DNA of 64,000 nt, from the NCBI GenBank assembly GCA_001770205.1, contig MEQL01000060.1, forward strand, positions 1 through 64,000, read 5' to 3'. A program made the position numbers and the translations under genes. Positions 3,972-26,718 of this stretch are shown one piece after another (the stretch's first letter is position 1; the number at the start of each line of letters is the position of its first letter). The stretch comes from Bdellovibrionales bacterium RIFOXYD12_FULL_39_22. GTDB lineage: Bacteria > Bdellovibrionota > Bacteriovoracia > Bacteriovoracales > Bacteriovoracaceae. Below the pieces are notes generated by a model. That model made no database searches. It had not been told where the DNA came from and saw only the letters and a list, made by a program, of their open reading frames with translations.

Positions 3972-4737
3972 GTTTAAAGTAGTTACAAAAATAGTAATAT
4001 TAATTTTTCTTCCGCTTGTTACACTCAGTGCCATATCTGATAATCTTGACGGAAAGGCCATTGCCACTCGGGCCTATCACGTGGAAGACGGAAAGGATCT
4101 TAAGGCAAAAGTTAGTATGACTATTTTTGAGAATAAAAAAGAGAGCAAGACTCGCAGTTTGGAACTTTTCAGAATTGATGACAATCAAAATGATCGAGTA
4201 CTAATTCGCGTTTGCATGCCTCAGCTTTTAAAGGGGACTACTTTTTTGGCCTGGAATAATCAGAATAAGGCCTCTGATCTTTGGATCTATCTCCCATCAA
4301 AAAAAATGTCCAGAAGAATTGCCGAAAGTGCTAAATATCAAAGTTTCGTGGCAAGCGATTATACCTACGATGATTTAAGCAAAATAAGTCTAACGGAAAA
4401 TAGCTTTCGCCGTCTTCCAGACAGTGGCGGATTCTTTAGTGTAGAAGTAATTCCTAATAAAACTGATTCTTTTAGCAAAAAAATTGCGCTAGTTCGAAAA
4501 GACAACTTCATCGTAGAAAAAATAACTTTCTATGATAAGCAAAATAATCCTTTCAAAATTTACAAAACCTTGGAGTTAAAAAATATTCAAGGAATTTGGA
4601 CTATAGCAAAAAGCTCTTTGAGTGATTTAAAAAACAACTCCGAAACTATATTGGTATTGGAAAAAATTGAATATAACTCCAATCTTAGCAAATCATTTTT
4701 TAACTCCAACAATCTGGAGAGAGCTTGCAGTTTATAA
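3964..4737 (+). CDS. Outer membrane lipoprotein-sorting (LolA-like) protein
   Basis: Signal peptide; GTTFL...WIYLPS..RRI...SFVASDYTYDDL pattern of the LolA-like family; overlaps the ketosynthase stop. Confidence 0.85.
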   Translation: MCKFKVVTKIVILIFLPLVTLSAISDNLDGKAIATRAYHVEDGKDLKAKVSMTIFENKKESKTRSLELFRIDDNQNDRVLIRVCMPQLLKGTTFLAWNNQNKASDLWIYLPSKKMSRRIAESAKYQSFVASDYTYDDLSKISLTENSFRRLPDSGGFFSVEVIPNKTDSFSKKIALVRKDNFIVEKITFYDKQNNPFKIYKTLELKNIQGIWTIAKSSLSDLKNNSETILVLEKIEYNSNLSKSFFNSNNLERACSL

Positions 4738-5984: not shown

Positions 5985-6680
5985 ATGCAAAGACTAATTG
6001 TATTTATTTTTCCAATTATCCTACTAATTCAATCTCCTTCTCTGTGGGCGGAAGAAATTGATGAGCTTGAGCAACCAGCAGAATTAACTTCCGCGACAGA
6101 AGAAGAAAATCAACATGTCGAAGAGTTTAATAAAACCATGGATGGAGTACCCATTGAGGCAATTGAAATTTTCCCCAGCTCCACAAATCAAGAGTGTGCT
6201 TTTGGTTTTGTTATCTATCCCTTCTCCCCCTATTATCACGCCCTAGGAATAGATGGCAGCTACAACTATGCCTTCAGCAAAACATGGAGCTGGGAAGTAG
6301 TCTCCGGCTCCTATCTTTTTACGGTGGATAAAAGTCTATCGGCCGAATTGGCCGAAGACTTTGGTGTTAGTCCAAAGCGCATAGATAAACTAAACTCCGT
6401 CATCTCTAGCAATGTACGCTATGTTTCCGCTTTCGGAAAAACAGTCTTTTTAGAAAAATATATTCAATCATATCGCGGCGCCTTTCTTTTAGGTATTGGG
6501 AATGTGACCACCTCTTTGCATAGTAAACTGGCCATTCACTTTGGCCTACATTTTGATTTTTACGTAAACAAGAGATACTCCTGGAAAATGGAGCTAAGCG
6601 ACTATGTTGCTATTCCGGGAGGAAGTATTGATGATTTTAATTTTGTTTCTATAAAGGTATTAACCGGTATTCATTTTTAA
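5985..6680 (+). CDS. Outer-membrane beta-barrel protein, GltA/GltB-like
   Basis: Signal peptide, PFSPYY motif, alternating beta strands, C-terminal Phe; first gene before GltC/GltD-like genes. Confidence 0.65.
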   Translation: MQRLIVFIFPIILLIQSPSLWAEEIDELEQPAELTSATEEENQHVEEFNKTMDGVPIEAIEIFPSSTNQECAFGFVIYPFSPYYHALGIDGSYNYAFSKTWSWEVVSGSYLFTVDKSLSAELAEDFGVSPKRIDKLNSVISSNVRYVSAFGKTVFLEKYIQSYRGAFLLGIGNVTTSLHSKLAIHFGLHFDFYVNKRYSWKMELSDYVAIPGGSIDDFNFVSIKVLTGIHF

Positions 6681-6691
6681 AAAATATTAAA

Positions 6692-8020
6692 ATGACTTTT
6701 TATAAAATTATTTTGACTTTAATCTTTCTCTTAATTTTTAGTAACTTCACATTAGCTGGAGTTCGCTGGGAAGGGAAAATTCCTCCTGCTGGGAAAGATA
6801 GCGCTAAATGGCATCAATTAATTGATGAACTCCTTAAACATCAACTATACTATGGTGCTCTGGCCGCCTCTTATCGCTCTCTAATGTTTTTTGAAGATAT
6901 TATTACCAAAGAAAAGGCCTATAAAACGATTACCATCCTGATCGATCGCGGTTATCCCTTTTCAACTAAAAAGTTATTCGAAACTGGCGATATCGATCCC
7001 CATTTAGATTATGAGCTAGTAAATGCCTACAACCTTTATAAGGCCATCGTTAATCAGGAAAAAAAGATGAATCGGTGGGCACAATTTTTCATGGATAAAA
7101 CTGATAAAGAAAAATATCCCAAATATAAATTCTTTCAAGCGTTAGAAGAGTATGGAAAAAAGAATTTAGATGTGGCCACCAAAATGCTCAGTGAGCTATT
7201 AACCGGACAATTCAAAATGGAGCAAGTTTCTTTTGCTACTAAAATTGCACGGACCCTGGCACGCATCTATTTTGAACAGGAAAAATACGATCGCGCTCTG
7301 GATATTTATGAAACTTTTTTAATAAAGCAAAACCCAGTAGTCCCTACCGATTGGCTCGAGACCGCTTGGTGCCACTACTATTTAAAAAATTATGATAAGG
7401 CCCTGGGTTATCTATATAATCTAGAATCTAAAGTTGCCTCCAATCCAGTGGTATTAGAAAAATATATTTTACGCGCGGCCATCTATATGGATGTCTGCGC
7501 CACCGACAGTGTAGAAAGTTTGATTAAAGAATTTACCACTAACTTTGGTACCGAGATAAATGGAATTATTAAGGGGAAAACACTAACTAATTTAAATACC
7601 TTAAGACAAATTTATCTGCCGAAGCATCAAGAATTTTTTCAGGCCAATATGACAATTGATCGCTTGCGCAAAGAGTTTCCTCTGCTTTCATCGATCGATG
7701 GAACGCTACTGCTCTTGGCCGAATACCTCTACAAATCTGAGTTGGCCATGCAAACCACGGCCATTAAATTTTATGAAGAGGATGCCATAAATGCTGCGGC
7801 AAATGAATTAATCATGCTTTCGGAATCTTTAAAATTTTTAAAATATGGCACTGCCAGAGAAAAATTTAATCCCTCCAACGTTTTTAAAGAAAAAGACTCT
7901 AGGATGCTGGGGGAAGAGATAGAAAATAACGATTTTATCCTGCGCTGGAGTCAAGCAGGAGATTTTTGGCGAGATGAGCGATATAAATATAAAGGAATTT
8001 TTAAATCACAATGCGACTGA
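6692..8020 (+). CDS. gltC: TPR protein, GltC-like (Agl-Glt machinery)
   Basis: Signal peptide; LETAWCHY...YDKALG.L..L.S...LRAAIY..C and C-terminal W...GDFWRDE..KY.....S.C signatures matching the GltC family as I know it. Confidence 0.7.
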   Translation: MTFYKIILTLIFLLIFSNFTLAGVRWEGKIPPAGKDSAKWHQLIDELLKHQLYYGALAASYRSLMFFEDIITKEKAYKTITILIDRGYPFSTKKLFETGDIDPHLDYELVNAYNLYKAIVNQEKKMNRWAQFFMDKTDKEKYPKYKFFQALEEYGKKNLDVATKMLSELLTGQFKMEQVSFATKIARTLARIYFEQEKYDRALDIYETFLIKQNPVVPTDWLETAWCHYYLKNYDKALGYLYNLESKVASNPVVLEKYILRAAIYMDVCATDSVESLIKEFTTNFGTEINGIIKGKTLTNLNTLRQIYLPKHQEFFQANMTIDRLRKEFPLLSSIDGTLLLLAEYLYKSELAMQTTAIKFYEEDAINAAANELIMLSESLKFLKYGTAREKFNPSNVFKEKDSRMLGEEIENNDFILRWSQAGDFWRDERYKYKGIFKSQCD

Positions 8021-11000
8021 TAACTCTTTTTATATTTTCTATTTTAATTACTATCACTATTTCGGCAACCGCCCAAGGAAAAAGTTCTGCCAAATCCACC
8101 AAGAGCGCTGCTGATGCTCAGCAAGAAAGCGATGCTGAATTTAAAAAAAATCTCTCCGAAATGTATCGACGAATAATTCGCTCCATCCAAGCACTTCGAG
8201 AGCAAATTGCCAGCAACCAAAACGTCCCCTTCCTCCCCAATTTATACTACCAACTGGCCGATTTACTCTCGCAAAAGGCCAATGTTGAATACTACATTCA
8301 AAAAGAAAACGAGGGATCGTATGATACCACCACTGCCAACGCAGGCAAACAATATAGTCAGGTAATTGTCTCAAAAAAAGAGGCCATCGATATTTATAAA
8401 AAAATCTTGGACGAATTTCCAAGCTTTGCTCAAAAAGCGGATACCATGTATGGACTAGCACTCACTCAATACTCCATTGATGAGTCTGCGGAATTTATTA
8501 ATAACACTAAAAAGCTAGTTGCCGCCTATCCAGGAAGTGAGCAGGCCATTCGCGGACAACTTCTAATGGGCCAATACTATTTTGATCAACGCATGTATCG
8601 CGAAGCAAGTACCTATCTAACAACTGTCTCTTCCGCCCCTTTTATTTATGAGCGAAATGTTGCTCGCTACCGCCTAGGCCTTTTGGCCTTAATTAATAGT
8701 CAATTCAAAGAATCACTCATGCGCTTTGAACAAGTAGTTACTGACGTAGATCTTAAGGAAAGCGATAGTCCTTTTGAAGTCTCTCTTAAGCAAAAAAGTG
8801 TAAAATCTAGTTTAAAAAGGGAAGCGCTTATTGATTCTATTCGCGCCTATACGGAAGTTTATCAACAGGACGCTACTCCTATTGAATACTACTCTCGCAT
8901 TGCCCCAACGGAGGCAATGTTTCAAGAGGTAATTGAAAAATTGGCCTATCGTTATATCTATTTAAAGCGATACAAATTTGCTATTAAAATTCTCCGCACC
9001 CTCAGCGAAAGAACCATCTTGCCTGAAAAAGTCATTAACGTTTATCAAGAAGTTCTTCTCATGATCCCTCTAGAGGACCGCATTGATCTACCGGTAGAAG
9101 AAATTCGCTATTTACTAGAAGTCTATAACCGTTGGCGATCTTTTTATGAAATCTCCGCTGAATTTCAAAAACAATCGTATAATTTTTTTGAAAAACAGGT
9201 ACGCGATCTTGGAACACGCGCCCACCTCTACATTAAGCAAAATGCCGGCAGTATCGCTGGAAGCAAGGGAAAATTAACGGCCGAAAAAGTTGACTACTAC
9301 ACTGAAAAGTCTATCGATTACTACAAGCTATATCTGAGTTTTTTTGGCAAATCTGAAAACGCAGTTAAAATTGCCACCAACCTTGCTGATGTCTATTTTC
9401 AAAAAAAACAGTATATGCAAAGCGGTGACTACTACCTACGCACCTACTTAGGCGAATTTGGAAAACCAATTGAAGCGAGAAAGTTAATTGAAAATGCGCT
9501 GCTTTGTTTGCAAAAAGATGCCGACTACTCTTTTTATGAATTACTGCGCGTCAAGGGCCTACTTATTCATGCACTGGAATCATATATGGCCATCGATGGA
9601 AGGTTTAAAAATGATCCAAAGCTTAATTTTATTTTAGTGAAAAGTGTCTATGAGCAAGGCCTCTATGAAGAGGCACTGGCCAGTTTTATTGAATTCATGA
9701 AAAGATTTCCTAAAACTAATTATGCGGTAGATGCTGGAGAATTAATCTTAGATTATTTTAATACTAAAAGCGATTATGATGGATTGGTTACTTGGGCATC
9801 CAAAATTTTAGATGCAAAAATTGCCAATAGCAAATTCAACAAGAAAGTAGCGGCCATCCAAAAGCAGGCCAGGTTAAAAAAATTACAATCACATGTTGAA
9901 TCTTCTACTGAATTTGATTCTTTCGCCCAAGGAAAAAGCTACTTGCAAACGGCCATGAATATTGAAGACTCCGCTTTGATGAATATTGCTTTGCAAAAAG
10001 CATTAAGTAACAGCAAAAAAGAAAAAGATATGGATACTTTTTTTGCAACTGCGAAAGTTTTAGCAGAAAAAGAGAGTGACCCCAATAAAAGGGCCGACAT
10101 TTTAATGTCGGTGGCACAAGAAAATTTACGCCTAACTAGATTTTTTGCGGCCTATGAAGCATACAAGGAAATTTACGACACTAGTAAAATACCGCTCAAA
10201 ACACGCACCAACGCTTATCTCCAGGTGGTTAGTATCGCTCTTAATCTTCGCGACTGGCCGCATTTGAATGAATTTCTAGGACACTCACTTAAATCCAAAA
10301 TATCGCGCAATATGCTTGTGGCCATAAGCGAGCAAGTCTCTGACTATCTCGATTCTCCTCATGAAGTCGAGGATACTATTTTAGAAGTTATTGAAAAGAT
10401 CGGCATGACTGATGCAATTTTACTCGGCATGTATAAAGCACAAGATCGACTAGGAAAAAGCGAGGCCAATAATACCATCGAAAAAACGGCCAAAATATGT
10501 AGCAAACGTATCAGTGGGGTACTCTGTGGCTGGAATCATTTGAAAAACCTTGATGAATTTAATCGCAAATTCATCTCTGCCATTTCCACCTCCTCCGCCA
10601 CCTTACCCAATATTGAAAAAAGTGCTGGGGCCTTTACTAAATTAATTGAAGGCCATTCCAAACTAGAACAAGCAAACGATCCTCATCTATCCATTATGGT
10701 TGCTATGCGACTTTCTGGCCTCTTTGCCGCCTTTGGTAATTTTTTAAAAAAGGGCTCGCTACTCAATCAAGAGGCACGACAAATTTTAATTCAAAAAGCA
10801 CAAGAAAGTATCAATACTGCCAATGGATATAAACAAAAATGCGCAAAGATCATAAATGCTACTGGTGCCGTAACTCCCGCGAATAAACTGTGTCTTTCTG
10901 GAAACTTTACGACAACTGATGACGGAAAATTTTGGAACGAATCAGCATTACAAGAAGGGGAAGTAGAAGAGATAAATCCTTCTAAATTTTCTACTCAGGA

Positions 11001-11280
11001 GAAAGATATCTTTGCCACCAACAAAGAAAATATTGCGCCAGTAAGAGAGATGGCCCGAGCATACTATGATAAAAAACATTATAATTATGCGCTGGCAACC
11101 GCCCTTTTTGGCAGTGCTAATTCGGGGGCCGGAGGTGATTTTTCTACCATCATCGGTTGCAGTGCCTTGCACTTAGGATATTACAACGAGGCCAGTTTTC
11201 ACCTGAAAAGAGCAACCGGGTATCCTGACATAAAAAACAGCTGTATGGCCGCCCTTAAGAAAATACAACTAGGAGAATAA
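8011..11280 (+). CDS. Large periplasmic TPR protein, GltD/AgmU-like
   Basis: Signal peptide; repeated YP.S/FP.T TPR turns, AIDIYKKILDEFP, LMGQYYF, LKREALID; 1089 aa; follows the GltC-like gene. Confidence 0.7.
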   Translation: MRLITLFIFSILITITISATAQGKSSAKSTKSAADAQQESDAEFKKNLSEMYRRIIRSIQALREQIASNQNVPFLPNLYYQLADLLSQKANVEYYIQKENEGSYDTTTANAGKQYSQVIVSKKEAIDIYKKILDEFPSFAQKADTMYGLALTQYSIDESAEFINNTKKLVAAYPGSEQAIRGQLLMGQYYFDQRMYREASTYLTTVSSAPFIYERNVARYRLGLLALINSQFKESLMRFEQVVTDVDLKESDSPFEVSLKQKSVKSSLKREALIDSIRAYTEVYQQDATPIEYYSRIAPTEAMFQEVIEKLAYRYIYLKRYKFAIKILRTLSERTILPEKVINVYQEVLLMIPLEDRIDLPVEEIRYLLEVYNRWRSFYEISAEFQKQSYNFFEKQVRDLGTRAHLYIKQNAGSIAGSKGKLTAEKVDYYTEKSIDYYKLYLSFFGKSENAVKIATNLADVYFQKKQYMQSGDYYLRTYLGEFGKPIEARKLIENALLCLQKDADYSFYELLRVKGLLIHALESYMAIDGRFKNDPKLNFILVKSVYEQGLYEEALASFIEFMKRFPKTNYAVDAGELILDYFNTKSDYDGLVTWASKILDAKIANSKFNKKVAAIQKQARLKKLQSHVESSTEFDSFAQGKSYLQTAMNIEDSALMNIALQKALSNSKKEKDMDTFFATAKVLAEKESDPNKRADILMSVAQENLRLTRFFAAYEAYKEIYDTSKIPLKTRTNAYLQVVSIALNLRDWPHLNEFLGHSLKSKISRNMLVAISEQVSDYLDSPHEVEDTILEVIEKIGMTDAILLGMYKAQDRLGKSEANNTIEKTAKICSKRISGVLCGWNHLKNLDEFNRKFISAISTSSATLPNIEKSAGAFTKLIEGHSKLEQANDPHLSIMVAMRLSGLFAAFGNFLKKGSLLNQEARQILIQKAQESINTANGYKQKCAKIINATGAVTPANKLCLSGNFTTTDDGKFWNESALQEGEVEEINPSKFSTQEKDIFATNKENIAPVREMARAYYDKKHYNYALATALFGSANSGAGGDFSTIIGCSALHLGYYNEASFHLKRATGYPDIKNSCMAALKKIQLGE

Positions 11281-11281
11281 G

Positions 11282-11971
11282 TTGTTGAAAAGATTTTTTA
11301 CACAACTATTTATCTTAACAATCACTAGCATCATCTTCATGTCCAACAATGCGAGGGCCCAGTCGGCATTTTTAACTCAATATCCTCATCTGAAAAAATT
11401 TCTTTATCTAGAGCCATCGCCTCACCTATTTTTAGGATTAGGACTAAGTCCGCTGGGCCTAGTTCAAAGTAAAGTTTATTTTTCGGCCAATCTTTTTCAA
11501 CTACACTTTATTGAAAACAACTGGGACTTTGAAATTTTCTCTGCCTCTATTGGAAAAACAAGTGCCCAATCTTCCAGCGCCCAATCTGATCACTTCACCA
11601 TTCGCAGCAGTCCAAAATATAAAATCTATGGGGTGGTAAGTGCTGGGCCAGTGATTGGATTAGAATTTGTTCGCTTCCCCAATCTACAATCACGTCTTTA
11701 TAAAGGGGGATGGACCACTCCACTGGAAACTTTTTCGACTTCTGGAAGCTTCTATGGCCTGGCGATCAGTGAAAACATAGATATTGGAGACCACTATATT
11801 CTAAAGATCTCTCAACTGCTCTACAAACAGGGATACTCCATAAAAAAAACACATAACAACTGGCAATATCTGCTGTTTGATTCTAACAGCTACGAACTAG
11901 AAGACGAAGAAATCGTGGCGGCAATTAGTCCAGACACCGTCTTTATGCTAGAATTTTCAATCCTATTTTAA
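11282..11971 (+). CDS. Secreted, probable outer-membrane beta-barrel protein
   Basis: TTG start after GGAG; signal peptide; beta-rich; ends LEFSILF. Confidence 0.5.
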   Translation: MLKRFFTQLFILTITSIIFMSNNARAQSAFLTQYPHLKKFLYLEPSPHLFLGLGLSPLGLVQSKVYFSANLFQLHFIENNWDFEIFSASIGKTSAQSSSAQSDHFTIRSSPKYKIYGVVSAGPVIGLEFVRFPNLQSRLYKGGWTTPLETFSTSGSFYGLAISENIDIGDHYILKISQLLYKQGYSIKKTHNNWQYLLFDSNSYELEDEEIVAAISPDTVFMLEFSILF

Positions 11972-13642
11972 ATCTGCATCACCAAATTTAACAGTTGCCG
12001 CATCATCGTCTACGCTAACACTCTTACTAGAAGTTCTAAAATACCTCGCATCATCAATAATACTGCTTTTTTCTAACAGATATACTTTAAGTCTATTCGT
12101 CTCTCCTACTGCTGGAATGCCTGTTACCTTTAAATTAAAACATGATTGAAGTCGATTATCACTTGTTTTAGTTAAAAGATATTTTGGCGTCTTAAGATGG
12201 TTGATTCGATCATTGTTAAAATTAGCAGGGGTATTTAATTTTAGCTCATTGTAATTTGAAGTACCGTCAAAATCGGGATCAAGCAAGGCCCCTGAATTTC
12301 CAATACCGGCAGTATATGCAATTCCCCCCAATCTAAACGCCAAGGAATCAGGAATCCAATCATCGTTAGTATCAAAGTCATCGCTACTACTTTCCAATAC
12401 TGCTACTTCTTCACAATTATTAAGTCCATCTCGATCTTGATCAATATACTTATCAGGATCTCCCGGGGCCCAACCAGCTTTTACAAAGCTCAAACAACTA
12501 TTAAATGGGTTTGCCAATGCCGGATGACAAGAAGTATCAGCGCAAGGCCTTCCAGTTGAGGCATACTCCACGCCATCGGAGACACCATTCTCATCACTAT
12601 CTTTTTTCTCCCAATCAGACCCTAGTTTCTCCTCTAATTGGTCACTGACTCCATCGCCATCACGATCTCCCGCAATCGTTCCGGTCTCAATATTCCAAGT
12701 AACATTCTCGTTAACCACAAAAATATCTTTAAGCGAATTTTTTACATTTCTAATAGGTGTAGAAAAACGTTCATAATCAATTAATTGTCCACCTCCAAAT
12801 TCGTAATAATCTCCATTCCCATTATTGGCCATCTCTTGTAACAGCGAACGAGCTGTATCATCTGCGCTATTGCCATAATAATAGGCCGTATTCAAGGCCA
12901 CTGTTTCCGCCCAGCTTTTGTAGTTATTGTTGGTAGCAATGGCGGCAATGGAGGCGGCCTGTAGCTTAAATGGCTCAACATCCACTATCGGGCCTAATTC
13001 ATCATGAGGGGCCCCATCACTTAAGAAAATAACCACGTAGTGCGAAGAGATTATTTCCTCTACCTGTGAATTTTTGGCCTGGTTAACATCGATAATAATA
13101 CGATCATATACTACCTGCAGGGCCGATTCATAATTAGTGAAACCCACATCCGATGAACAATACTGCGGCGTGGCCGGCAGACAGGCCTCTCCCTCTGGTA
13201 TTATGGGATTTAATCTGGTTTTTTGATTTTCAACATTATCAATAAAGCGATCTCTTCCTACGAAAAATTTTCCAGCATCCTCTGCGCTATAGGCAGTAAA
13301 GGCCCGCGCCTCACTAGAAAAGTTTACTAGCGAGTAAAAAACTTGTTCATCACTAATCGAATTATTTAGGTAATTAAGTAGTGCATCGTAACGACGAATT
13401 CCATCATAGTCGGTTGGTTCATCTCGATTACTAGAGGATTTATCGATAACAAAGATAAACTTAAGATTTGATTTTTTTTCGCTGGGAGGAACTGTACAAA
13501 AATTAACTTCAGCATCAACTAAAAATTCTCTGGCATAATGCTCTAATTCTTTTAACTCTTCTTTCGAACATCCAACGAGCACTCCTCCCAAAGTGAGCGC
13601 TATCAATGTCCAAAAAATTATAACCCTTAGTGCTTTCATCAA
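11963..13642 (-). CDS. Lipoprotein with VWA domain and thrombospondin type 3-like Ca-binding repeats (MtsD-like)
   Basis: Lipobox LVGC; MIDAS DKSSS...T(GFTNY)...D(LSDG); repeated DxDxDG motifs; C-terminal CF...I...N...VY..E domain. Confidence 0.8.
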   Translation of the reverse strand: MMKALRVIIFWTLIALTLGGVLVGCSKEELKELEHYAREFLVDAEVNFCTVPPSEKKSNLKFIFVIDKSSSNRDEPTDYDGIRRYDALLNYLNNSISDEQVFYSLVNFSSEARAFTAYSAEDAGKFFVGRDRFIDNVENQKTRLNPIIPEGEACLPATPQYCSSDVGFTNYESALQVVYDRIIIDVNQAKNSQVEEIISSHYVVIFLSDGAPHDELGPIVDVEPFKLQAASIAAIATNNNYKSWAETVALNTAYYYGNSADDTARSLLQEMANNGNGDYYEFGGGQLIDYERFSTPIRNVKNSLKDIFVVNENVTWNIETGTIAGDRDGDGVSDQLEEKLGSDWEKKDSDENGVSDGVEYASTGRPCADTSCHPALANPFNSCLSFVKAGWAPGDPDKYIDQDRDGLNNCEEVAVLESSSDDFDTNDDWIPDSLAFRLGGIAYTAGIGNSGALLDPDFDGTSNYNELKLNTPANFNNDRINHLKTPKYLLTKTSDNRLQSCFNLKVTGIPAVGETNRLKVYLLEKSSIIDDARYFRTSSKSVSVDDDAATVKFGDADLK

Positions 13643-14553
13643 TGCCCTGTCCCTATGAAATAATCAGAAGATTGTAGCCAAGAATAATCATATTCTATGA
13701 CGGACTCATCTTCGACGGTTGGTAGTACGTTAATATCATAAACATGCATATACTTATTAGTTAAATTTATTGCATTACGTTCTATGAAATAGACACGAAT
13801 CAAATTACCACTGGAAGAATCTGCAATTGGAATATTGCTTATGATGTAGTCATAACATTCCGCCGTGGTAATATCCAAGCGTCGGCCATTGTCATACTTT
13901 ACTGCCAATCCAGAAATGCTGTGATCATTTGTTTCATAGAGCGGAGTATTGGCCTTGATTTCTTCAATGTTAGTAAGCCCATCTACATCAGAATCTAAAA
14001 TGGCATCTTGTCCGTCGCTAGTAGAGGGTTCCAATCCATTGCGAACTTCTAAATAATCTATAACACCATCACCATCGCTATCAAAATTATTAGGATCACT
14101 TCCTAAAACTTTCTCTTCACAATCATTTAATCCATCATAATCTGAATCGCGCGAAGGATCAGCACAATTTAACAGATGATTTTGCTGATCTTGCCCTAGG
14201 CCAGAGTAATAAACCAGCAGATCACCATAACCGTCTTCGTTGCTATCTTCTTTATTAATGCCAATATTGAGCACTGTATCATTGTCTCGATAGTTTGGTA
14301 TACCGTCACTGTCTAAATCGATATTGATGCGTTTGTTTTCAATTACTGTAGTTAAATTAATCAGGAAAAAATCACTACGCTTGCGATCTGTGGCCGGACA
14401 ATATTTGGTAAATTTCATCGTAACAGTTTTGGGTTTAACAGTAAGGGCCTTTTCCTCTAATGGTTTTAATTCTTTCTCTTGCTGACACCCACCTAACCAC
14501 GTCAGTCCAAAAAGAAAGTAATAAGCAATTAAAAAAGAAGGCCCTGTTTTCAT
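13639..14553 (-). CDS. Lipoprotein with thrombospondin type 3-like Ca-binding repeats, VWA-less paralog
   Basis: Lipobox LGGC; several DSDxDG repeats; same C-terminal CY...I..I...NLIRVYFIE domain as its neighbours. Confidence 0.75.
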   Translation of the reverse strand: MKTGPSFLIAYYFLFGLTWLGGCQQEKELKPLEEKALTVKPKTVTMKFTKYCPATDRKRSDFFLINLTTVIENKRINIDLDSDGIPNYRDNDTVLNIGINKEDSNEDGYGDLLVYYSGLGQDQQNHLLNCADPSRDSDYDGLNDCEEKVLGSDPNNFDSDGDGVIDYLEVRNGLEPSTSDGQDAILDSDVDGLTNIEEIKANTPLYETNDHSISGLAVKYDNGRRLDITTAECYDYIISNIPIADSSSGNLIRVYFIERNAINLTNKYMHVYDINVLPTVEDESVIEYDYSWLQSSDYFIGTGH

Positions 14554-14574
14554 ATATAAAAATTCTCCCCTAAA

Positions 14575-16353: not shown

Positions 16354-16381
16354 AAAAACTCCTTTGGTTTCAACGTTTAAA

Positions 16382-18049: not shown

Positions 18050-18284
18050 TTTCACTCTCCGGTAAACGCAAATCTTATGCTCAATCAACTACGTACTGCG
18101 CATAGGCAATTATAAGATGGCCGGCTCGCCTCTCCTAAGATTATGAAAAAACCTTCTGATTTTATCGGTTAACTTGCGGTAAACATTAAGTAAGTCTTTC
18201 ACTGAGAGCTACTTTAAATTTTGCTTTAGAAATTAAAAAGTGCCCACTTTTTGAGGCATCAATTTCTATCTTATTGAAAAGTGC

Positions 18285-18650
18285 TTAGCGTCCCCAGGCC
18301 CGGGCCATCGCCTCTTTGCATTTTTTGATTTTGTCTTCGCTGTCTATTCCAATGTTAATAGTTCTACAAGACTCTAGCCAATCTCCAAATTCCTTGATGG
18401 TTAATACCCCCTCATCGGCCTCTACGGCCTTGGCGCCATCGTTGCAAGGAGGAAAAGGAATAGAGGTAATAGTTCCACATCTAGCGGTATAAACCTCTAA
18501 CCATCTACCAATCATTTTAACCGTGTCAACTTGCTCCTCTTTAGACATTGCTTCTCGCGCAACAACAGTTCCACTGGATAGCAACAAAAATACCGATAAA
18601 AGAAGAGCTCTGTCTCGCAATATTTCTTGATAGATCCTAATCCGCTTCAT
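18285..18650 (-). CDS. Small secreted protein with four cysteines
   Basis: Start probably ATG 18650; hydrophobic signal segment; two similar G.WLE.. segments. Confidence 0.5.
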   Translation of the reverse strand: MKRIRIYQEILRDRALLLSVFLLLSSGTVVAREAMSKEEQVDTVKMIGRWLEVYTARCGTITSIPFPPCNDGAKAVEADEGVLTIKEFGDWLESCRTINIGIDSEDKIKKCKEAMARAWGR

Positions 18651-19176
18651 CAGTACCACTTCCTTCTTCAACCTCACCTCCCATACTTTGCTTATTAAGG
18701 TCCGCGACAGAAAGGAGCGCCGAATTTATAATGGGTGGAAGCTCATCAAAAAAATCATTTTTCCTAAAAGATAGTTTAGAAAAAGTTCCCTTCTCAGCAA
18801 TTGCTGAAAAAAAAGATTGTAACCTTACAATTGGCCCAGAAACTTTATGTGATAAAAAAACATAAACAATCGTGGAAAAAATTATCGCTAACAAAAGTGC
18901 CACCAAAAGATTGCTGATTATAGTTTCTTCTTGTAGGCGAATAAACTTAAAGTATGCATGGAACTCTCCAAATCCCGCACTCACCCCTAATTCCCGCATA
19001 TGATTAAAAAAACTTATTATTTGAAATACTACAAATGCCAAGCAAGTGGTAATAGTCGCCGCATTAACCACTAGCAACACTAGTTGAAATTTGGGATAGA
19101 TGAGTAATTTTTTTCTCATCTTCTTATTAAGACGATAATTGTTTGTGTTAAAACTGGTTGTCGTATCATCACTCAT
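18637..19176 (-). CDS. Two-TM membrane protein with HAMP-like segment
   Basis: Two TM helices then SHKVSGPIVRL...LSFRKNDFF.EL, a HAMP-like family pattern. Confidence 0.65.
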   Translation of the reverse strand: MSDDTTTSFNTNNYRLNKKMRKKLLIYPKFQLVLLVVNAATITTCLAFVVFQIISFFNHMRELGVSAGFGEFHAYFKFIRLQEETIISNLLVALLLAIIFSTIVYVFLSHKVSGPIVRLQSFFSAIAEKGTFSKLSFRKNDFFDELPPIINSALLSVADLNKQSMGGEVEEGSGTDEAD

Positions 19177-19186
19177 TGCTTATCTC

Positions 19187-21373
19187 CTAATTTGGAGGGT
19201 CTTGATAAGCGCAGGCCTTCTCAATCCCCTCTTGGCAACTATATTTAAAATAGTATTGTGCTCTCTCATTATTTCCATCTTTGGCCTCGGCCAAGGCCAA
19301 ATTATAACAGGCAATGATGAGCTTAAGTTCACAGGCCTTATTGTAATACTCGAGAGATTGTTTTAATTCGCCTTCACTCTCCAGCAAAGCTCCAATATTA
19401 TTGCAACCATTTGCATGTTTGCCCTGACAGGCCAGCAGATAATATTTTTTTGCACTTTCTTTTTGCCCAGACTTTTCCTCCAAATTTCCCATGCTATCAC
19501 ACCCCCCCATAAAACTACCTTCACAGGCCTTGGTGTAATAACGACGCGCTTCTTCTGGCCGGGAGGCCTGTTCTTCAAAGCGGCCCCAATTATCACAGGC
19601 ACCCATATTACCACCAGCGCATCCTTTTTTAAATAATTCAAGTGCCAATTGAGAATTTCCTGACTGTGTTTCTAATAGGCCCAAGTTATCACAGGCCAAC
19701 ATGGAGCCTGCATCACAACTACGCTTGAAAATATCTCGAGCAAATTGTTCATTACCTGCATAATACTCAAACGTAGCAAAGTTATTACAACCATCTAAAT
19801 GGCGTAAGGTACAGGCGCGTTGAAATAGTTCATGGGCATTTTTAAATTTCTCTTTTTCTTTTTCTAAAATACCTTGATTATAACAGCCATCCCCATTTTC
19901 CCCCTCACAGGCCTTTTTAAAAAGATCATAGGCCAAAGCAACATTACCGGCCTTATGCTCAAGACTACCTAAATTATTACATCCTCGAGAATAATTTGCT
20001 TCACAGGCCTGTCGATACAATCTCTGCGCCTCATCTATTTTTTTCTCTCCAGCAAGTACTACTCCTAAATTATAGCATCCACCCATATGCGCAGCATCAC
20101 AGCTTTCTTTAAAATACTTTTTTGCCTCGACTGTTTTTTTATTAGCATTTAAAATGGCACCTACATTATTACAACCTCCAACAAATTTTCCCAGACAGGC
20201 CTGTCGATAGAAAGTTTCGGCCTGTTTGGTATCTCCCGACCCCTCTTCTAAAAGTCCAAGATTGTTACAAGATTTAGCAAAACCCAAGGTGCAATTATTT
20301 TGATATAATTCACGGGCCCTTTTTTTATTTCCAAGCTGCTCTTCCGCTTCACCTAAATTATCGCAAGAACTAAGATGGCCTAACTGACAGCCTTGTTGAA
20401 AATAAGGATAGGCACCGGAGGCATTCCCATGATCCTCTAGTAAATTTCCCAGATTATCACAACCTCGAACAAATCCACCGTCACATGCTTGTTTAAATAA
20501 TTTTTTGGCAAGATCAATATTCCCATTTTTATTTTCTAGCAATCCCCAATTATCACATCCTCCTAATAACCCATCTGTGCATCCTTTTTTAAAAAGCTCC
20601 TTGGCAACTTCTTTGTTATTAGCATAATATTCAAGAACACCTTCATTATTGCATCCTAAAAGCAGGCCCCCCTTACAGGCCATATCAAAAAATCTTTTTG
20701 CATCATCATTTCTCTTATCTTTTTGCATTTCAAGGCCCAGTTGATTGCAGGCCAACATAACTTTTTTATCACATAAGTCACTTAGTATTTTTGAGGCCGA
20801 CTTACTTTCTTCATTTTTTGCCAAACTCAGTGCTTTTGAAAATGCCTGCAAATCTACGAACTCATTAATCCCCATATCAACGGTTATGGGCAGAGAGAAG
20901 TTATCTGTTAATTTACTTAAAATCTCCTTAAAAAGCTGCTGATAGTTTTTAGAGACATTGCTTTCCTTCCCCAGCTGCATTTTGGCCGTTCCAATTTTTT
21001 TTGCCAAAAAAACATCAATAATATTAAACTCCAAAGTGCTAATTTCTTCAAAGACAGAAGGCACCAAGTAAATCACAAAATCACTATAGTGAGTTAGCCC
21101 CCAACTAACATAATCTTGTTCATTTTTGAATTTTTCTGTCTGCAAAGTCTCCATCAGAAAAATGCCGCCGACCGACGAGAGATCTTGATGTAATATTTCA
21201 TATATGGCATGTTCTACTCCTAAAACATTGCCTCCATCTTTTTGCTGCTCGGGCGAAATTAAGGCCACCTTTTTTATCTTGATCTCTTCATTATTATTGC
21301 TCTCTGTGGCAACTGTTAACTTAACAATAAAAAAACAAAACAAGACAATGGAGAGGGAATTTAATAATTTCAT
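19187..21373 (-). CDS. Secreted cysteine-rich Sel1-like repeat protein (HcpA-type repeats)
   Basis: Signal peptide; about 14-15 tandem 36-aa repeats with AC..G...GC.NLG. Confidence 0.9.
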   Translation of the reverse strand: MKLLNSLSIVLFCFFIVKLTVATESNNNEEIKIKKVALISPEQQKDGGNVLGVEHAIYEILHQDLSSVGGIFLMETLQTEKFKNEQDYVSWGLTHYSDFVIYLVPSVFEEISTLEFNIIDVFLAKKIGTAKMQLGKESNVSKNYQQLFKEILSKLTDNFSLPITVDMGINEFVDLQAFSKALSLAKNEESKSASKILSDLCDKKVMLACNQLGLEMQKDKRNDDAKRFFDMACKGGLLLGCNNEGVLEYYANNKEVAKELFKKGCTDGLLGGCDNWGLLENKNGNIDLAKKLFKQACDGGFVRGCDNLGNLLEDHGNASGAYPYFQQGCQLGHLSSCDNLGEAEEQLGNKKRARELYQNNCTLGFAKSCNNLGLLEEGSGDTKQAETFYRQACLGKFVGGCNNVGAILNANKKTVEAKKYFKESCDAAHMGGCYNLGVVLAGEKKIDEAQRLYRQACEANYSRGCNNLGSLEHKAGNVALAYDLFKKACEGENGDGCYNQGILEKEKEKFKNAHELFQRACTLRHLDGCNNFATFEYYAGNEQFARDIFKRSCDAGSMLACDNLGLLETQSGNSQLALELFKKGCAGGNMGACDNWGRFEEQASRPEEARRYYTKACEGSFMGGCDSMGNLEEKSGQKESAKKYYLLACQGKHANGCNNIGALLESEGELKQSLEYYNKACELKLIIACYNLALAEAKDGNNERAQYYFKYSCQEGIEKACAYQDPPN

Positions 21374-23235
21374 TGACGATTTTCCTTTGTCTGGCCCGAT
21401 TTTAAAATTTTAACTTTATGAAGAATATCTTTACTAACTTTAAAATCTATTTTTTGATCATTAAAAAGTGCTACATAATCCCCTTCCGGCAAAGAAAGTT
21501 TATTAAATGGCAACTTAACGATATATAGCTTATCGCTCTCGGCCATTTGAATTCGCAATACTGACTTGGCGGGAAAATCCTTATCCTCACACTCAATAAT
21601 TCCAGAAGATGATTTAGTAAACTTCGGTGCAGGAATCTCAAGCATTTGATCTTTATGTTCTAGCATAACCGGAACAATATAAGGATCTACTCCATCTTTA
21701 ATAAATCTAAAATATACTCTTTCATATACTGGAACTTCTATTTTTTTTAAGCCTGATGCAATTAATTCCTCATTATAAAAAATCTGTACACCTTTGCTAT
21801 TTTGAATGGGCCAAGAAACAAACCCTTTGTGTCCCATTTGCCGAGCATAGATACCAGCAAAAGGAGTTATCATATTCCCTATCCACAAAATTAAAAACAA
21901 AACAGCGAACAATTTAGTAAAAAATTTAACCCGCCGCAAATTTATTGAAGAATCATCTTCATCGGAGGGATCAGAATTAACAACCATCTCCCGCCGTCTC
22001 GGACGATCAAACTTAGTCAAATCAACATCTGCCTCTTTGTTTTTTGACTTACGACTTTTGGCCACTACTGTAGACTCTCCGGTCAATGCTTTGGCCGTTT
22101 TTCTAATAATCTCTTTATAAATTTCTGTATTGATTAATTTCTTTTTAGGCATGGCCTTTTCTGGCAATGCCGGAGAAACATTTTTGATGCCGATATCCTT
22201 GTCGCCTTTGCTTTGCGCGGTTTCTCGTTTGTAATCCTGATAATACTCTTCTACATTTACATCGACATATCCTTTTAAAATCGCCTCATCCTTTTCAATA
22301 TCTTTAGCAAATATTTTCCTCATCCTTTCACGAAAAGACGCTACAGAGAAATTTGCGTCAAAATTGTGTAAAAAAGTTGTTAGCTCTTGGCCAAAATCTT
22401 CCATCGACTGATATCGTTTGTTGGGATTTTTTTGTAATGCCTTAACAATAATGCGTTCCAACTCCAGAGGAAGAGTGGGAATAAAGATGGAAGGTAAAAT
22501 AATTTCGCACTTTTCAATTTTGCTTAAAACCGCAAAGGGATTGTCATCATCTTTTTCAAAATGCGGCCGCATACATAAAATTTCCCAAAGCACTAAACCC
22601 AAGGAAAAAACATCATAGCGAGAATCAATAGGCAGGCCCATAATATATTCTGGCGCAAAATAAGAGAACTTACCTTTGATGGCCCCCGCCTGCGTTCGGC
22701 GAGAATTAGTATCGGCCTTGGCTATACCAAAATCAATAACCTTTACTATTCCATCATAGGAAATCATGATATTTTCTGGAGAAATATCGCGATGAATTAT
22801 ATTGGCGCTTTCCCCGGTAAATTTATTCTTAAATGCGTGGGCGTAGTGAAGTCCTTGACACACCTGTGATATCAAATATACGACATGACTGATTGATAGT
22901 TTTTCTAAAACAAACTGCAATTGATCTAGCAGATCCCGAACACTTCTTCCATCTATGTATTCCATTGCTAAAAAAAGGCGATTATTCAATTTACCATAAT
23001 CAAACGTCTGTGCGATATTAGGATGACTAAGATCAAAAGCTATTTTAATCTCATCCATAAACATAGTGACAAATTCCTCATCATCAGAAATTGCCTCCCG
23101 CATCTGCTTGATTACAACCAACTTACTAGACTGTTCACCGATAAAAAGTGCTCGCGAAATAATGGCCATTCCACCATCTTGAATGTGATCTAAAATTACG
23201 TAGCGGCCAAATCGTTCTAGTTTTTTGTTTGCCAT
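21370..23235 (-). CDS. Membrane-anchored Ser/Thr protein kinase
   Basis: GGMA, VVIK, HRDISPEN, DFGIAK, GKFSYFAPE; single TM followed by a periplasmic beta domain. Confidence 0.95.
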   Translation of the reverse strand: MANKKLERFGRYVILDHIQDGGMAIISRALFIGEQSSKLVVIKQMREAISDDEEFVTMFMDEIKIAFDLSHPNIAQTFDYGKLNNRLFLAMEYIDGRSVRDLLDQLQFVLEKLSISHVVYLISQVCQGLHYAHAFKNKFTGESANIIHRDISPENIMISYDGIVKVIDFGIAKADTNSRRTQAGAIKGKFSYFAPEYIMGLPIDSRYDVFSLGLVLWEILCMRPHFEKDDDNPFAVLSKIEKCEIILPSIFIPTLPLELERIIVKALQKNPNKRYQSMEDFGQELTTFLHNFDANFSVASFRERMRKIFAKDIEKDEAILKGYVDVNVEEYYQDYKRETAQSKGDKDIGIKNVSPALPEKAMPKKKLINTEIYKEIIRKTAKALTGESTVVAKSRKSKNKEADVDLTKFDRPRRREMVVNSDPSDEDDSSINLRRVKFFTKLFAVLFLILWIGNMITPFAGIYARQMGHKGFVSWPIQNSKGVQIFYNEELIASGLKKIEVPVYERVYFRFIKDGVDPYIVPVMLEHKDQMLEIPAPKFTKSSSGIIECEDKDFPAKSVLRIQMAESDKLYIVKLPFNKLSLPEGDYVALFNDQKIDFKVSKDILHKVKILKSGQTKENRQ

Positions 23236-23276
23236 ATTTTGTTATATTACTATTATCCTATTAATTTAAAATAAAT

Positions 23277-24764
23277 CTATATCGACGAAGGAGTAAAATT
23301 AAAGGGGTATTGAACATTAACGGCGCCCCCCTTTGGACTTGGAAAACTTATTTTCCCAATCTCCTGCGAGATACAGTCATACAATTTCTGATTTTTAAGT
23401 TGAGTCTTTACAACTTTAACTCCAGAAACACTTCCTCCAACATTTATGTTCCACCCCATCGTAATCACTCCAGACAAAGTCGAATCATAAAGCAGGGCCT
23501 TCTCGTAGCAATATTGTAATTTTGATAGATGTTTTTTAAGGGCCTTCTCAATTTCTGAATCGGAGAGATTTCCTTTGCCACTTGTCCGCATCCCTCCTCC
23601 GCCCCCACCAAAGGAATCACCAAAGGCCCCGCCCTCTGCCCCATAATCTTGTAATCGCCCAACGGCCACTTGACCTTGTACATTATTTAGAGATTTGCCA
23701 CGAGAATTACCAAACACGGCCCCCTCGGAAATTGCCTCTCCTGTTGCTATTTCTCTGGCACCTCGAGTACGAATAGGCCCAGCAGATCCTGGGCCTGAAG
23801 CGGTAGTTACTAACTTTGAAAGATAGTCTTTTTGTCCACTACCTCCACCGCTTGCCGAGACTCCTTTAGCATAATTTTTTGAACTACTCGGAACTGCCCC
23901 TCCCGCCTGAACGTTAAACTTGCTGGGGGCCGTCGATGACAAAAATCCCAGTGAACTACTAAGACGCGCCTTTGTTGCGGCCGCGGCATTGGCCTTGGCC
24001 GCCCCCATCTTGCCCGCATCTCCCATTCGAACTCCACTTTCACGCGTAAAGGTGTCGGCTTTTCTCACTCCTCCAATTTTTTCTGGCCCCTTTTTGACCA
24101 CTAGCCGCTTAGGATCCTCTTTCGTAGGAGGAGGTGGTTTTTTAGTTTCTGCCAACATACTATTTGGTGCCAATTTTTTTGTCTTCTTTTTTTCCTCTTT
24201 AGGTGGAGGGCCGGGTGGTTTCTTCTCCTCCACAACGACCTTGGGGGCCTCTTTAACTTCCGGTACCGGAGTCGCAACCACCAGCGGTTTAATTATCTCT
24301 TCCATCTTTTTTTTATTAATTTTTGCTACCAACTCATTAATGCGTTTCTGATCAATCGAAATCCGCAACTGATGCCTTATCTCAGGCGCAAAAAAAGTAT
24401 ATAGCGCTCCCATGGCCAAAATAAAAAGATGAAGGAATGTTGAATGTTTTATAAATTTAGTAAAGCGAATATTATCTTTAACGATAAAATCTTTGGCCAA
24501 TTGAAAAACATAGGTGCGTTCTTCGCATTTGATTTGAATAGGACGGTCTGCTGCCAACGAATATTCTCGCTTTGTCGGAACATAAGCATTGACCACTACC
24601 TCCCAGTCTTTGTGGTTAAGCCCAATACTAATTTTAAATTTATTTCCATCAAGATTGAGTTCTATTTTTTTTTCAATGAAATCAATTTCTACTGGATCAT
24701 AGGTCGAGGCCCCACCGGGCCCTTGCGATGATATTTGGATGATGGGATTTTTAATTTTTTTCAT
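23277..24764 (-). CDS. TonB-like energy transducer, GltG/AgmX/PglI C-terminal domain protein
   Basis: Single TM with S..LH motif, Pro/Lys-rich then Gly-rich linker, C-terminal LQYCYE.AL...L.G...W.I...G.V...CI...I..I.FP.PKGG...V.YPF.F. Confidence 0.85.
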   Translation of the reverse strand: MKKIKNPIIQISSQGPGGASTYDPVEIDFIEKKIELNLDGNKFKISIGLNHKDWEVVVNAYVPTKREYSLAADRPIQIKCEERTYVFQLAKDFIVKDNIRFTKFIKHSTFLHLFILAMGALYTFFAPEIRHQLRISIDQKRINELVAKINKKKMEEIIKPLVVATPVPEVKEAPKVVVEEKKPPGPPPKEEKKKTKKLAPNSMLAETKKPPPPTKEDPKRLVVKKGPEKIGGVRKADTFTRESGVRMGDAGKMGAAKANAAAATKARLSSSLGFLSSTAPSKFNVQAGGAVPSSSKNYAKGVSASGGGSGQKDYLSKLVTTASGPGSAGPIRTRGAREIATGEAISEGAVFGNSRGKSLNNVQGQVAVGRLQDYGAEGGAFGDSFGGGGGGMRTSGKGNLSDSEIEKALKKHLSKLQYCYEKALLYDSTLSGVITMGWNINVGGSVSGVKVVKTQLKNQKLYDCISQEIGKISFPSPKGGAVNVQYPFNFTPSSI

Positions 24765-24766
24765 CG

Positions 24767-25033
24767 TCAGTATTGTGTCCTCAGAATTTCTTCGCGATAA
24801 TCCACTCTCATCTTGATAAACTTTATCTTATCTTTTTTTGAGCTAATCGTTAAAATCATGGAAAGATTTCTAGTCTGTCCACGAACCTCTAATGGTTTAC
24901 TCATATTCTGCGTATTATTATTGTAATTACCACCACCACTGGCCGCTTTCCCTTTTTCTGCGGCCTTCAGCGAAAAAACCATCATTCCCAGCAATATAAT
25001 TAAAATCAGAATATAAATTCTACTTACAGTCAT
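24767..25033 (-). CDS. Small periplasmic protein, GltF/CglF-like
   Basis: Signal peptide; LEVRGQ...FIKMRVDYREEIL resembles the GltF I.G...IK.R..F..EI pattern; located immediately before the GltG-like gene. Confidence 0.55.
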   Translation of the reverse strand: MTVSRIYILILIILLGMMVFSLKAAEKGKAASGGGNYNNNTQNMSKPLEVRGQTRNLSMILTISSKKDKIKFIKMRVDYREEILRTQY

Positions 25034-25036
25034 AGT

Positions 25037-25531
25037 TTATATATCCTGTCGCATAGAGACAAAATTTATAGCTGTTATACCTACTCCGGCCGCAGTCAAA
25101 ACCACACTATCGATCATTTTATATGGTACATCTTTATCGGCCAAAATCATTAATTCAATGGCCTTACCATCCTTTTCATATTCCTGCTTAATTCGCTCCA
25201 GTCCCTGCGCCGCTCGTTTCATTACTTCCTCTCGTTGTGACGCAAAGGAATTAAAAGCAATGGTCTCTCCCTTATCAAACGCCCAGCGATCTTTTCCAAC
25301 AATAAGCGTAATTCCAGTTATCGCCTTACCTACACTTTTTATCTGAACTTTCGGTAGAATAATATAATCCGGTAACGGAACCTCTTCCACTACATCGGAG
25401 TAATTGACCAATAAAAAGATCAAAATGATAGTTAAAATATCCATAAGCGACGTTATATTTAATCGCTCTGGTTTTTTGGGGGCCAAACTACCAAAACTAA
25501 CTTTTTTCGAGCTCATTGTTTTCCTCATCAC
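25037..25531 (-). CDS. exbD: ExbD/TolR family protein (AglS-like)
   Basis: LNITSLMDILTIILIFLL TM with conserved Asp; ILADKDVPY..I..V...A..G periplasmic motif. Confidence 0.9.
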   Translation of the reverse strand: MMRKTMSSKKVSFGSLAPKKPERLNITSLMDILTIILIFLLVNYSDVVEEVPLPDYIILPKVQIKSVGKAITGITLIVGKDRWAFDKGETIAFNSFASQREEVMKRAAQGLERIKQEYEKDGKAIELMILADKDVPYKMIDSVVLTAAGVGITAINFVSMRQDI

Positions 25532-26030
25532 CTTTTGGCATTAACACTAATAAAAGTTCTTCTGTAATCAGCGCGGCACTATCAGGTTTTTTACACTGTT
25601 CAAGTATCTTTACCATACGCTCATAAGTGACATTGGGTTCTACGGAAACTAACATCGAGTTTAGTTTTTTATGTGCTGTTCTAAATTCAATAACCTTGCG
25701 CCAAATTGTCTCTGCCGCCGACTCGTTATTGGCCGCCGTCTCCTTTTGTAAGCTCTCTCCGCTATCTTCATCAATCAACTCTAAATCAAGCGATGCCTCG
25801 GAGATAGTAAGTTGCAACACATAGCTTTTTTCCTTATCCGGCTTAACTGCCTCTTCCGGTTTTTCCTCGCTCTTGCTTAGTCCAGGAATATTAACCGACA
25901 ACGCTTTAAAATGATAAAACGCAACATTGGTAATCAATACCGGAATAATAATAAGCAGCAAACTCATAAAAGGCAGCATCAAGTCGCCTTCATCTTGATC
26001 CGGTTTTTGAAACTTAACTCTCTTTTTCAT
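25497..26030 (-). CDS. exbD: ExbD/TolR family protein (AglQ position), TM Asp replaced by Ser
   Basis: TM LMLPFMSLLLIIIPVLI; periplasmic VEPNVTYERMVKILE motif; located between ExbB-like and second ExbD-like genes. Confidence 0.8.
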   Translation of the reverse strand: MKKRVKFQKPDQDEGDLMLPFMSLLLIIIPVLITNVAFYHFKALSVNIPGLSKSEEKPEEAVKPDKEKSYVLQLTISEASLDLELIDEDSGESLQKETAANNESAAETIWRKVIEFRTAHKKLNSMLVSVEPNVTYERMVKILEQCKKPDSAALITEELLLVLMPKGDEENNELEKS

Positions 26031-26076
26031 TTAAATCCTTTTATCTTTGATTATCTTTTTAAATCTCAGGCAATAA

Positions 26077-26718
26077 CTAGGCCGCCTTACTGCGAGAGCT
26101 ACTCCTATCTGCGTGCTCATGCTCAATAATGTGCAATATCTCATTAATCGTTTCATCATATTTTTGCAAAATAGATGATTCTTTATTGGCCAACATGGCG
26201 TATGCAACAATACAAGGGATAGCAACAATCAGACCAAATGCAGTTGTATTCATGGCGGTAGAAATACCATTTGCTAAAATTTCTGCTTTGGTGGCGGCAT
26301 CTGCACCACTCAAAGAACTAAAAGAGGTAATCAAACCTTGGATCGTTCCTAACAAACCAAAGAGCATAGAGATATTACCTGTAACCTGAATCAAATATGT
26401 TCGCTTCTGAATCTTGGGAATTAACTTTTGAATGCATAATCCACTGGCCGATTCAATAGTCTCCATGGACTGATCATAGTTACGTAAAATTTCTGAAATA
26501 ACAGCAGCAAGCGGATGCCCCGTGGATCTACACATCTTGGCCGCACCACTAATATTGCGCTCTCTAACACTTTTAACCACTTTACCAAAAAAGTTGCGTC
26601 TAAATGGGTAACTAAACGTTAGCGCAAAATATTTTTCTAAAACCATGGCAAATGCCAAGATTGATAGCAACGCAATAACGTACATGAATGGCCCACCATC
26701 GATAAAAAACTTAATCAT
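26077..26718 (-). CDS. exbB: MotA/TolQ/ExbB proton channel protein (AglR-like)
   Basis: GGPFMY start; GLLGTIQGLI.SF and GISTAMNTTAFGLIVAIP motifs. Confidence 0.95.
   Translation of the reverse strand: MIKFFIDGGPFMYVIALLSILAFAMVLEKYFALTFSYPFRRNFFGKVVKSVRERNISGAAKMCRSTGHPLAAVISEILRNYDQSMETIESASGLCIQKLIPKIQKRTYLIQVTGNISMLFGLLGTIQGLITSFSSLSGADAATKAEILANGISTAMNTTAFGLIVAIPCIVAYAMLANKESSILQKYDETINEILHIIEHEHADRSSSRSKAA

Follow-up and report, generated by a model that had tools for sequence, protein, structure and literature searches.

In Myxococcus, the published force path of the Agl-Glt gliding machine runs from AglR through GltG, GltD, GltF and GltC to GltA/B, the adhesin being placed at the outer face and GltE having an unclear role (PMC11761067). 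The adhesin CglB is described as held by the barrels, not secreted through them, and as reaching the surface without GltABH (Islam 2023), and CglD combines TSP-type calcium repeats with a VWA domain (bioRxiv 2023.10.19.562135). A paralogous set, G5 (MXAN_1327-1331), comprises homologues of GltD (1089 amino acids [aa]), GltC, a barrel, GltG and GltF, is listed without GltE, and is given as of unknown function (Luciano 2011); MtsC is MXAN_1334 (PMC12475490). For Bdellovibrio HD100, three clusters are likewise listed without GltE (Luciano 2011), and deletion of Bd1483, a lipoprotein with a MIDAS (metal ion-dependent adhesion site), is reported to give no predation defect (Tyson 2024); PMC10196010 is a further source on related literature. 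Here, we describe a locus at positions 5985 to 26718 of a 64,000-nucleotide stretch (the window; contig MEQL01000060.1) from Bdellovibrionales bacterium RIFOXYD12_FULL_39_22, an uncultured bacterium related to predatory Bdellovibrio, in which an Agl-Glt-type gene set without GltE lies beside genes for Mts-like VWA/TSP3 lipoproteins. With G5 compared by its published gene list, the locus most likely represents the form that an unnamed "G5-Mts" subfamily takes in Bdellovibrionota.

The core of the locus is an Agl-Glt-type set of ExbB, two ExbD, GltF, GltG, GltD, GltC and two 8-stranded barrels. On the plus strand, barrel A, a GltA/B-family outer-membrane beta-barrel (5985-6680; TIGR04565, E 1.5e-12, 47.8 bits against a cutoff of 60; 18-row alignment), is followed by a GltC-like periplasmic TPR protein (6692-8020; NF033756, E 3.4e-9, below cutoff) that adjoins barrel A and GltD in all loci of type A, defined below. 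Next come a GltD-like TPR scaffold of 1089 aa, the marker of the Mts-linked clade (8011-11280), and barrel B (11282-11971). An alignment of window-type GltDs matched GltDs defined by a flanking GltE at an hhalign probability of 99.9 over 901 columns. [quoted passage not shown] It occurs only with the window GltD type, its profile, partly built from those genomes, matching the same 12 of 251 genomes. The minus strand carries AglR/Q/S-type stator genes, namely, a predicted ExbB/TolQ/AglR-like proton-channel subunit (26077-26718; PF01618, E 3.8e-24) and two ExbD/TolR proteins, one at the AglQ position (25497-26030; PF02472, E 6e-4) and one at the AglS position (25037-25531; PF02472, E 8e-15). These are followed by a GltF-like small periplasmic protein (24767-25033) and a GltG-like transducer with a transmembrane segment, a Pro/Lys-rich linker and a TonB-C-like tail (23277-24764; myxo_SS_tail, 88.7 bits against a cutoff of 40; GltG, E 1.9e-14; alignment). 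Family scans gave no match for the putative GltF, which was assigned by size, position and a C-terminal motif conserved among homologues in linked loci.

The absence of a separate GltE gene, noted in the original prediction, was borne out: a two-sequence profile that detected GltE in G236, G083 and G230 found it neither in the locus nor in any Mts-linked neighborhood. Within the locus, to which this search was confined, GltH, GltI, GltJ, GltK and CglB had no NCBIfam match besides the shared GltG/GltJ tail. No FHA domain was found in the window GltG or in 11 of 11 relatives of the same type, and the three other GltGs of this genome each carry one. The genome (94.6% complete) holds further Agl-Glt pieces on C39, C47, C52 and C8, two of them with a GltE-like gene.

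Four lipobox proteins on the minus strand form the adhesin-like part of the locus. VWA1 (11963-13642) is an MtsD-like lipoprotein with a MIDAS-VWA domain in a beta stalk and TSP3-type Ca-binding repeats (NF047639, E 1.1e-12, 47 against 800 bits), and VWA2 (16382-18049) is its paralogue, about 34-39% identical (family profile, tblastn and alignment). Between them lie a TSP3-repeat lipoprotein (13639-14553; TSP3_bac, 25 bits; MtsD, E 1.7e-13; CglD, E 3.7e-6), a paralogue without the VWA domain that tblastn connects to both VWA genes, and a stalked glycine-tail lipoprotein with Ig/PKD domains (PKD matches), a beta head and, at its C terminus, a Cys-Gly(n)-x-x-Pro tail (14575-16353). Lipobox, MIDAS-VWA, TSP3-type repeats and a common C-terminal domain are all present in the MtsD-like proteins, and the MtsD matches of the window, at 47-50 bits, do not reach the curated cutoff of 800. 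The three Mts-like lipoproteins hold 3-5 DxDxDG-type motifs each and share one stalk domain; VWA/TSP3 genes occur in this genome only at this locus. In the confident AlphaFold model of VWA1 (pLDDT, 87.7), a beta domain formed by both chain ends hosts the VWA insertion, with the repeat region in between. The VWA domain (residues 58-296) gave a fold match at Z 19.0 (root mean square deviation [rmsd], 2.6; 181 residues), and its MIDAS residues D67, S69, S71, T169 and D209 are each at least 90% conserved in a 52-row alignment. By structure comparison, this layout matches the pilus tip adhesins Mfa5 and SpaC; sequence searches for solved structures returned none for the VWA alignment and only PKD domains for the glycine-tail protein.

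The glycine-tail protein is modelled as an Ig/PKD chain plus a beta head, the tail being disordered (pLDDT, 73.6). Assessed within the whole-protein model, the head has a middling fold match to an LpqH orthologue (Z 8.4; rmsd, 2.5; 104 residues) and Atlas matches below 0.9. Among its best 150 library matches, 129 are shorter than 700 aa; in 120 of these 129, the last 25 residues include 5 or more Gly, and 105 of the 120 have Pro four residues from the C terminus. Strong profile matches occur in 12 genomes, 8 of them type A, the profile being partly built from these genomes. The conserved Cys-Gly(n)-x-x-Pro-x-x-x tail (window 14575-14620) characterizes a lipoprotein family of more than 100 clusters whose head has no Pfam family.

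Co-occurrence of the lipoproteins with motor/Glt genes, set as a test beforehand, proved to be far above background. We sampled 251 same-phylum genomes with two mutually independent queries: the MtsD profile had matches in 28 (none over the cutoff), and the window GltD had matches in 20 at E 1e-30, comprising type A (12 genomes at 690 bits or more, this genome included) and type B (8 genomes at 110-134 bits). MtsD-profile matches were present in 12 of 12 type-A genomes versus 16 of 239 others; kin are not independent in such counts and relatedness inflates any test, and the 12 type-A genomes span six families. Flanking regions were taken for 21 of the 27 other MtsD-positive genomes plus G040. 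Nine of the 12 type-A genomes have adhesins adjoining Glt genes, with varying gene order, and in the fragmented G182 the adhesins lie next to the motor and GltG. Outside this flank sample, the two were linked in G024 and L029 and unlinked in G001 and G005. MtsD matches were also present in five of the eight type-B genomes, and G230 additionally has a VWA-like neighbor. A second subtype and metagenome loci have the same neighborhood. The VWA alignment was also used to scan metagenomes, and 74 loci were kept out of 273 confirmed matches; in these, VWA adjacency holds by construction and the actual result is the Glt genes found on many of the longer loci, most shorter ones being too short to show them. 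Named homologues of the locus proteins point to Bdellovibrionota, a single-protein scan of genome contigs led to one locus only, and scanned viral contigs held no relatives of the locus. A third subtype (L149, L171, L182, L143, L161, L174 and L185) has the order GltG-barrel-GltC-GltD, followed by a lipoprotein of unidentified family, MtsC-like and MtsD-like genes and a 770-aa lipoprotein. Separately, L092 encodes a subtilase lipoprotein (17302-18792) within the type-B adhesin operon of G265.

Mts-type GltDs form one clade in FastTree reconstructions (35 of 49 rows; 39 of 60 rows in a larger run, support 100), as do the 15 Mts-linked GltDs among 26 chosen rows in IQ-TREE (100/98). The clade is separate from Bacteriovorax-type GltDs and from HD100-type stand-ins, which are clusters from G083, G230, G236 and G065 paired to HD100 by gene order and size. 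Adhesins lie in the fetched flank of 14 of the 19 type-A rows.

The genes mtsA-F, which we take to be MXAN_1332-1337, would directly follow G5, whose end (MXAN_1331) lies three locus tags before mtsC (MXAN_1334). L170 (65% GC) encodes in a row an MtsC over the cutoff (504.7 versus 350), three MtsD-like proteins, an FHA-bearing GltG and a barrel, and L161 encodes GltG, a barrel, GltC, GltD, an MtsC-like protein and an MtsD-like protein. Because of the locus tags and these two loci, Mts genes beside a GltE-less Glt set appear to be an old arrangement rather than a window-specific one. The original prediction had treated Mts as a separate Myxococcus locus, which is not supported: G5 lies close by MtsC, and MtsC is linked to GltG and a barrel in L170. 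A Glt-Mts link was not found in the searchable text of the literature, which leaves out most of the content of subscription papers, Zhang 2007 included.

On balance, this locus probably encodes a machine, driven by protons, that presents adhesins at the surface of the cell and moves or pulls them, probably serving attachment or cohesion and not being the main engine of gliding. Powered display, movement or loading of Mts-like adhesins is the best reading because every link of the published force path has a counterpart here. By analogy with Myxococcus, an ExbB5-ExbD-ExbD' stator would take up protons, GltG would transmit force through the wall to GltD, GltF would connect GltG/GltD to GltC, and GltC would hold barrels A and B. 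The lipoproteins would be seated at the barrels on the outer face and be coupled to the motor, with MIDAS sites that may bind an acidic ligand, whether on a surface, on prey or on a sister cell, and TSP3 repeats predicted to bind calcium. A complex prediction for barrel A, barrel B and VWA1 (score, 0.20; mark, 0.32) counts neither for nor against this reading.

Several observations weigh against powered adhesin display. The ExbD at the AglQ position, assigned by gene order with no AglQ sequence aligned, carries Ser in the conserved Asp column, and AglQ D28N is reported to paralyze the Myxococcus motor (Wartel 2013). In G123, G185, G001 and G005, the Glt cluster is not linked to the VWA genes, and TSP3-VWA-glycine-tail trios stand without Glt neighbors in G040, G236, G144 and G204, each of which has a second-subtype Glt cluster elsewhere in its genome. 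Only the GltG tail exceeds a curated cutoff, every other Glt/Mts match in the window falling short, and the MtsC profile, which finds MtsC in L170, had no match in this 94.6% complete genome in a search run without a positive control. The GltD trees carry long-branch and composition warnings, are midpoint rooted, and contain neither M. xanthus nor HD100 sequences. From Myxococcus, a polar MXAN_1327 mutant is reported with no appreciable motility defect (Luciano 2011), and mts is important for social motility according to the title of Zhang 2007, a reference in PMC11980579.

The loss of the Asp is not confined to the window. Ser occupies this column of the first ExbD in the window, G024, G255, G123, G185, G001, L122, L124, L125, L129 and L158, Gly in G152, G230 and G265, and Asn in L171 and L182, the remaining clusters having Asp, which suggests repeated loss across Mts-linked lineages. 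In the second ExbD, Asp is conserved in every cluster row aligned. AglQ and AglS are modelled as a heterodimeric plug (PMC11761067; PMC9389320), so the window stator either manages with a single Asp or is weakened. A stator found in nature with Asp missing from one of its plug subunits would also test the use of two aspartates by 5:2 motors. L124 (8470-21076) and L125 (9626-22233) carry the same system, Asp-to-Ser change included; the GC content of these contigs, 27-28%, may reflect another lineage or a transfer.

A complete force path would also suit a further stage-specific gliding engine whose CglB/CglD-type traction adhesins would be the VWA/TSP3 lipoproteins. In Bdellovibrio, four to five clusters that differ in expression have been proposed as alternative engines (PMC13689555; PMC12546842), and CglD likewise has TSP-type repeats and a VWA domain (bioRxiv 2023.10.19.562135), with a weak CglD match here. 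We nevertheless regard this explanation as rather unlikely, given that the genome has other clusters bearing GltE/FHA, that a GltG without FHA and with no linked GltI/J leaves no evident cytoplasmic track link, that disruption of G5 is reported to have spared gliding (Luciano 2011), and that the type is patchy (12 of 251 genomes). Instead of moving adhesins, the machine could export or assemble them, pulling lipoproteins through or off the barrels for release or into a calcium-stabilized fiber. The stalk domain shared by three paralogues, the resemblance of the VWA-in-stalk layout to pilus tip adhesins and an invariant glycine tail ending in Pro-x-x-x, which resembles a docking or sorting tag, all fit such a device, and gliding proteins as transporters have been raised in print (PMC13689555). 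It is quite improbable, however, since folded cargo is generally too large for 8-stranded barrels, adhesin trios exist without same-type barrels, and CglB surfaces without GltABH (Islam 2023).

The unlinked genomes and the replacement of the first ExbD Asp by Ser, Gly or Asn in several lineages would also be expected if the adhesin operon and Glt cluster were co-regulated neighbors without physical contact or if a one-aspartate stator were a passive scaffold. Against this stand the strict co-occurrence, adjacency that recurs under shuffled gene orders across families, and the Asp present in every row of the second ExbD, which make it very improbable. Powered adhesin display could also be extended to a third functional Agl-Glt/Nfs class spanning several phyla, in which an asymmetric single-Asp stator assembles and tugs a calcium-stabilized multi-subunit adhesin fiber docked via the glycine-tail lipoprotein. 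This extension is clearly on the unlikely side; if true, it would account for both orphan Myxococcus loci, G5 and mts.

All 17 open reading frames (ORFs) of the locus were confirmed, those other than barrel A, GltC, GltD and barrel B lying on the minus strand. The two convergent operons originally predicted are there as ORFs, but the minus-strand run is probably two transcription units, not one, because of a 235-base gap, a weak terminator-like hairpin at 18258-18241 (observed 1, expected 0.3 +/- 0.5), and the motor block of G255, which is placed on the other side. Three lipoprotein/small ORFs probably start downstream of their longest-ORF starts, at 16353, 18049 and 18650, because of ribosome-binding-site-like motifs and database records of 592 and 555 aa. 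Library scans recovered ExbB, two ExbD, the kinase, Sel1 repeats and TPRs, with weak PKD, TSP3 and VWA matches; NCBIfam-type matches were to TIGR04565, GltC, the GltG/GltJ tail and MtsD.

The remaining minus-strand genes are accessory, with conserved linkage in only two other genera. They encode a small secreted Cys protein without a match in family scans (18285-18650) and a two-transmembrane protein with a HAMP-like tail and five paralogues elsewhere in the genome (18637-19176), both with linked homologues only in G255 and G024, a secreted Cys-rich Sel1-repeat protein linked only in G255 (19187-21373; Sel1, 38.2 bits), and a membrane Ser/Thr kinase (21370-23235; Pkinase, E 5e-39; transmembrane segment 442-460). 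The HAMP label was not confirmed by Pfam. The kinase had been proposed as a phospho-regulator within one dedicated system; we rejected it as a core regulator, as it is linked only in G255 and G024 and the GltG type lacks FHA. A full-length orthologue occurs only in G255, the G024 kinase scoring no higher than in-genome paralogues. One of the five paralogues of the HAMP-like family (G000 C39, 315260-315889) is separated by about 1.7 kb from another ExbB-ExbD-ExbD set. Barrel A is immediately preceded (window 1662-5942) by genes for a polyketide synthase-type dehydratase, a FabF-like ketosynthase, a LolA-like protein and an unassigned 405-aa secreted protein, which were not observed in related loci; the LolA-like and ketosynthase genes were on this ground excluded from the system. 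Farther along (window 38372-61026), ORFs of 325-939 aa have no Pfam match at E 1e-6 (38372, 40668, 43742, 53907, 55242, 56407, 57728 and 61026).

The system is conserved and seems not to have been named in the literature that could be searched; its parts are known, and it is foreshadowed by G5-mts and by VWA neighbors of Bdellovibrio clusters. What the Myxococcus G5 paralogue does has been a question since 2011 (Luciano 2011), and a conserved GltD clade linked with Mts-type adhesins points to a candidate cargo, so that the question becomes testable in M. xanthus with existing mutants. Agl-Glt systems were earlier proposed to diversify by cargo.

Compared with the Agl-Glt gliding machine and its CglB/CglD adhesins, the locus has a stator, a GltG-GltD-GltF-GltC path, paired barrels and a MIDAS-VWA lipoprotein in common but lacks GltE, H, I, J and K at the locus, FHA in GltG and the AglQ-position Asp, and its adhesin architecture is different. 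The Agl-Nfs spore-coat machine is similarly a paralogous Glt set moving surface cargo; unlike the window system, Nfs has NfsE, borrows AglRQS and moves polysaccharide. The HD100 clusters Bd1474-1481 (near the MIDAS lipoprotein Bd1483), Bd2369-2377, Bd0413-0420 and Bd0828-0838 have their own motor, like the window, whereas the GltDs of the HD100-type stand-ins, used in place of searches of HD100 itself, branch outside the window clade. Clusters of HD100-like size in G083, G230 and G065 have short VWA-type lipoprotein neighbors (340-422 aa) with no TSP3 match. That the window GltD falls outside the sampled HD100-type clusters supports the original prediction; an own motor, the lack of GltE and a VWA neighbor already exist in Bdellovibrio-type clusters. 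G5 together with mts shares GltD, GltC, one barrel, GltG and GltF, the absence of GltE, and adjacent MtsD-like VWA/TSP3 lipoproteins; it differs in having no linked motor and an FHA-bearing GltG, and the window adds its own stator, a second barrel and the glycine-tail lipoprotein, with MtsD scores of about 48 against 800 bits. By this comparison, the locus is likely the Bdellovibrionota counterpart of Myxococcus G5 plus the adjacent mts.

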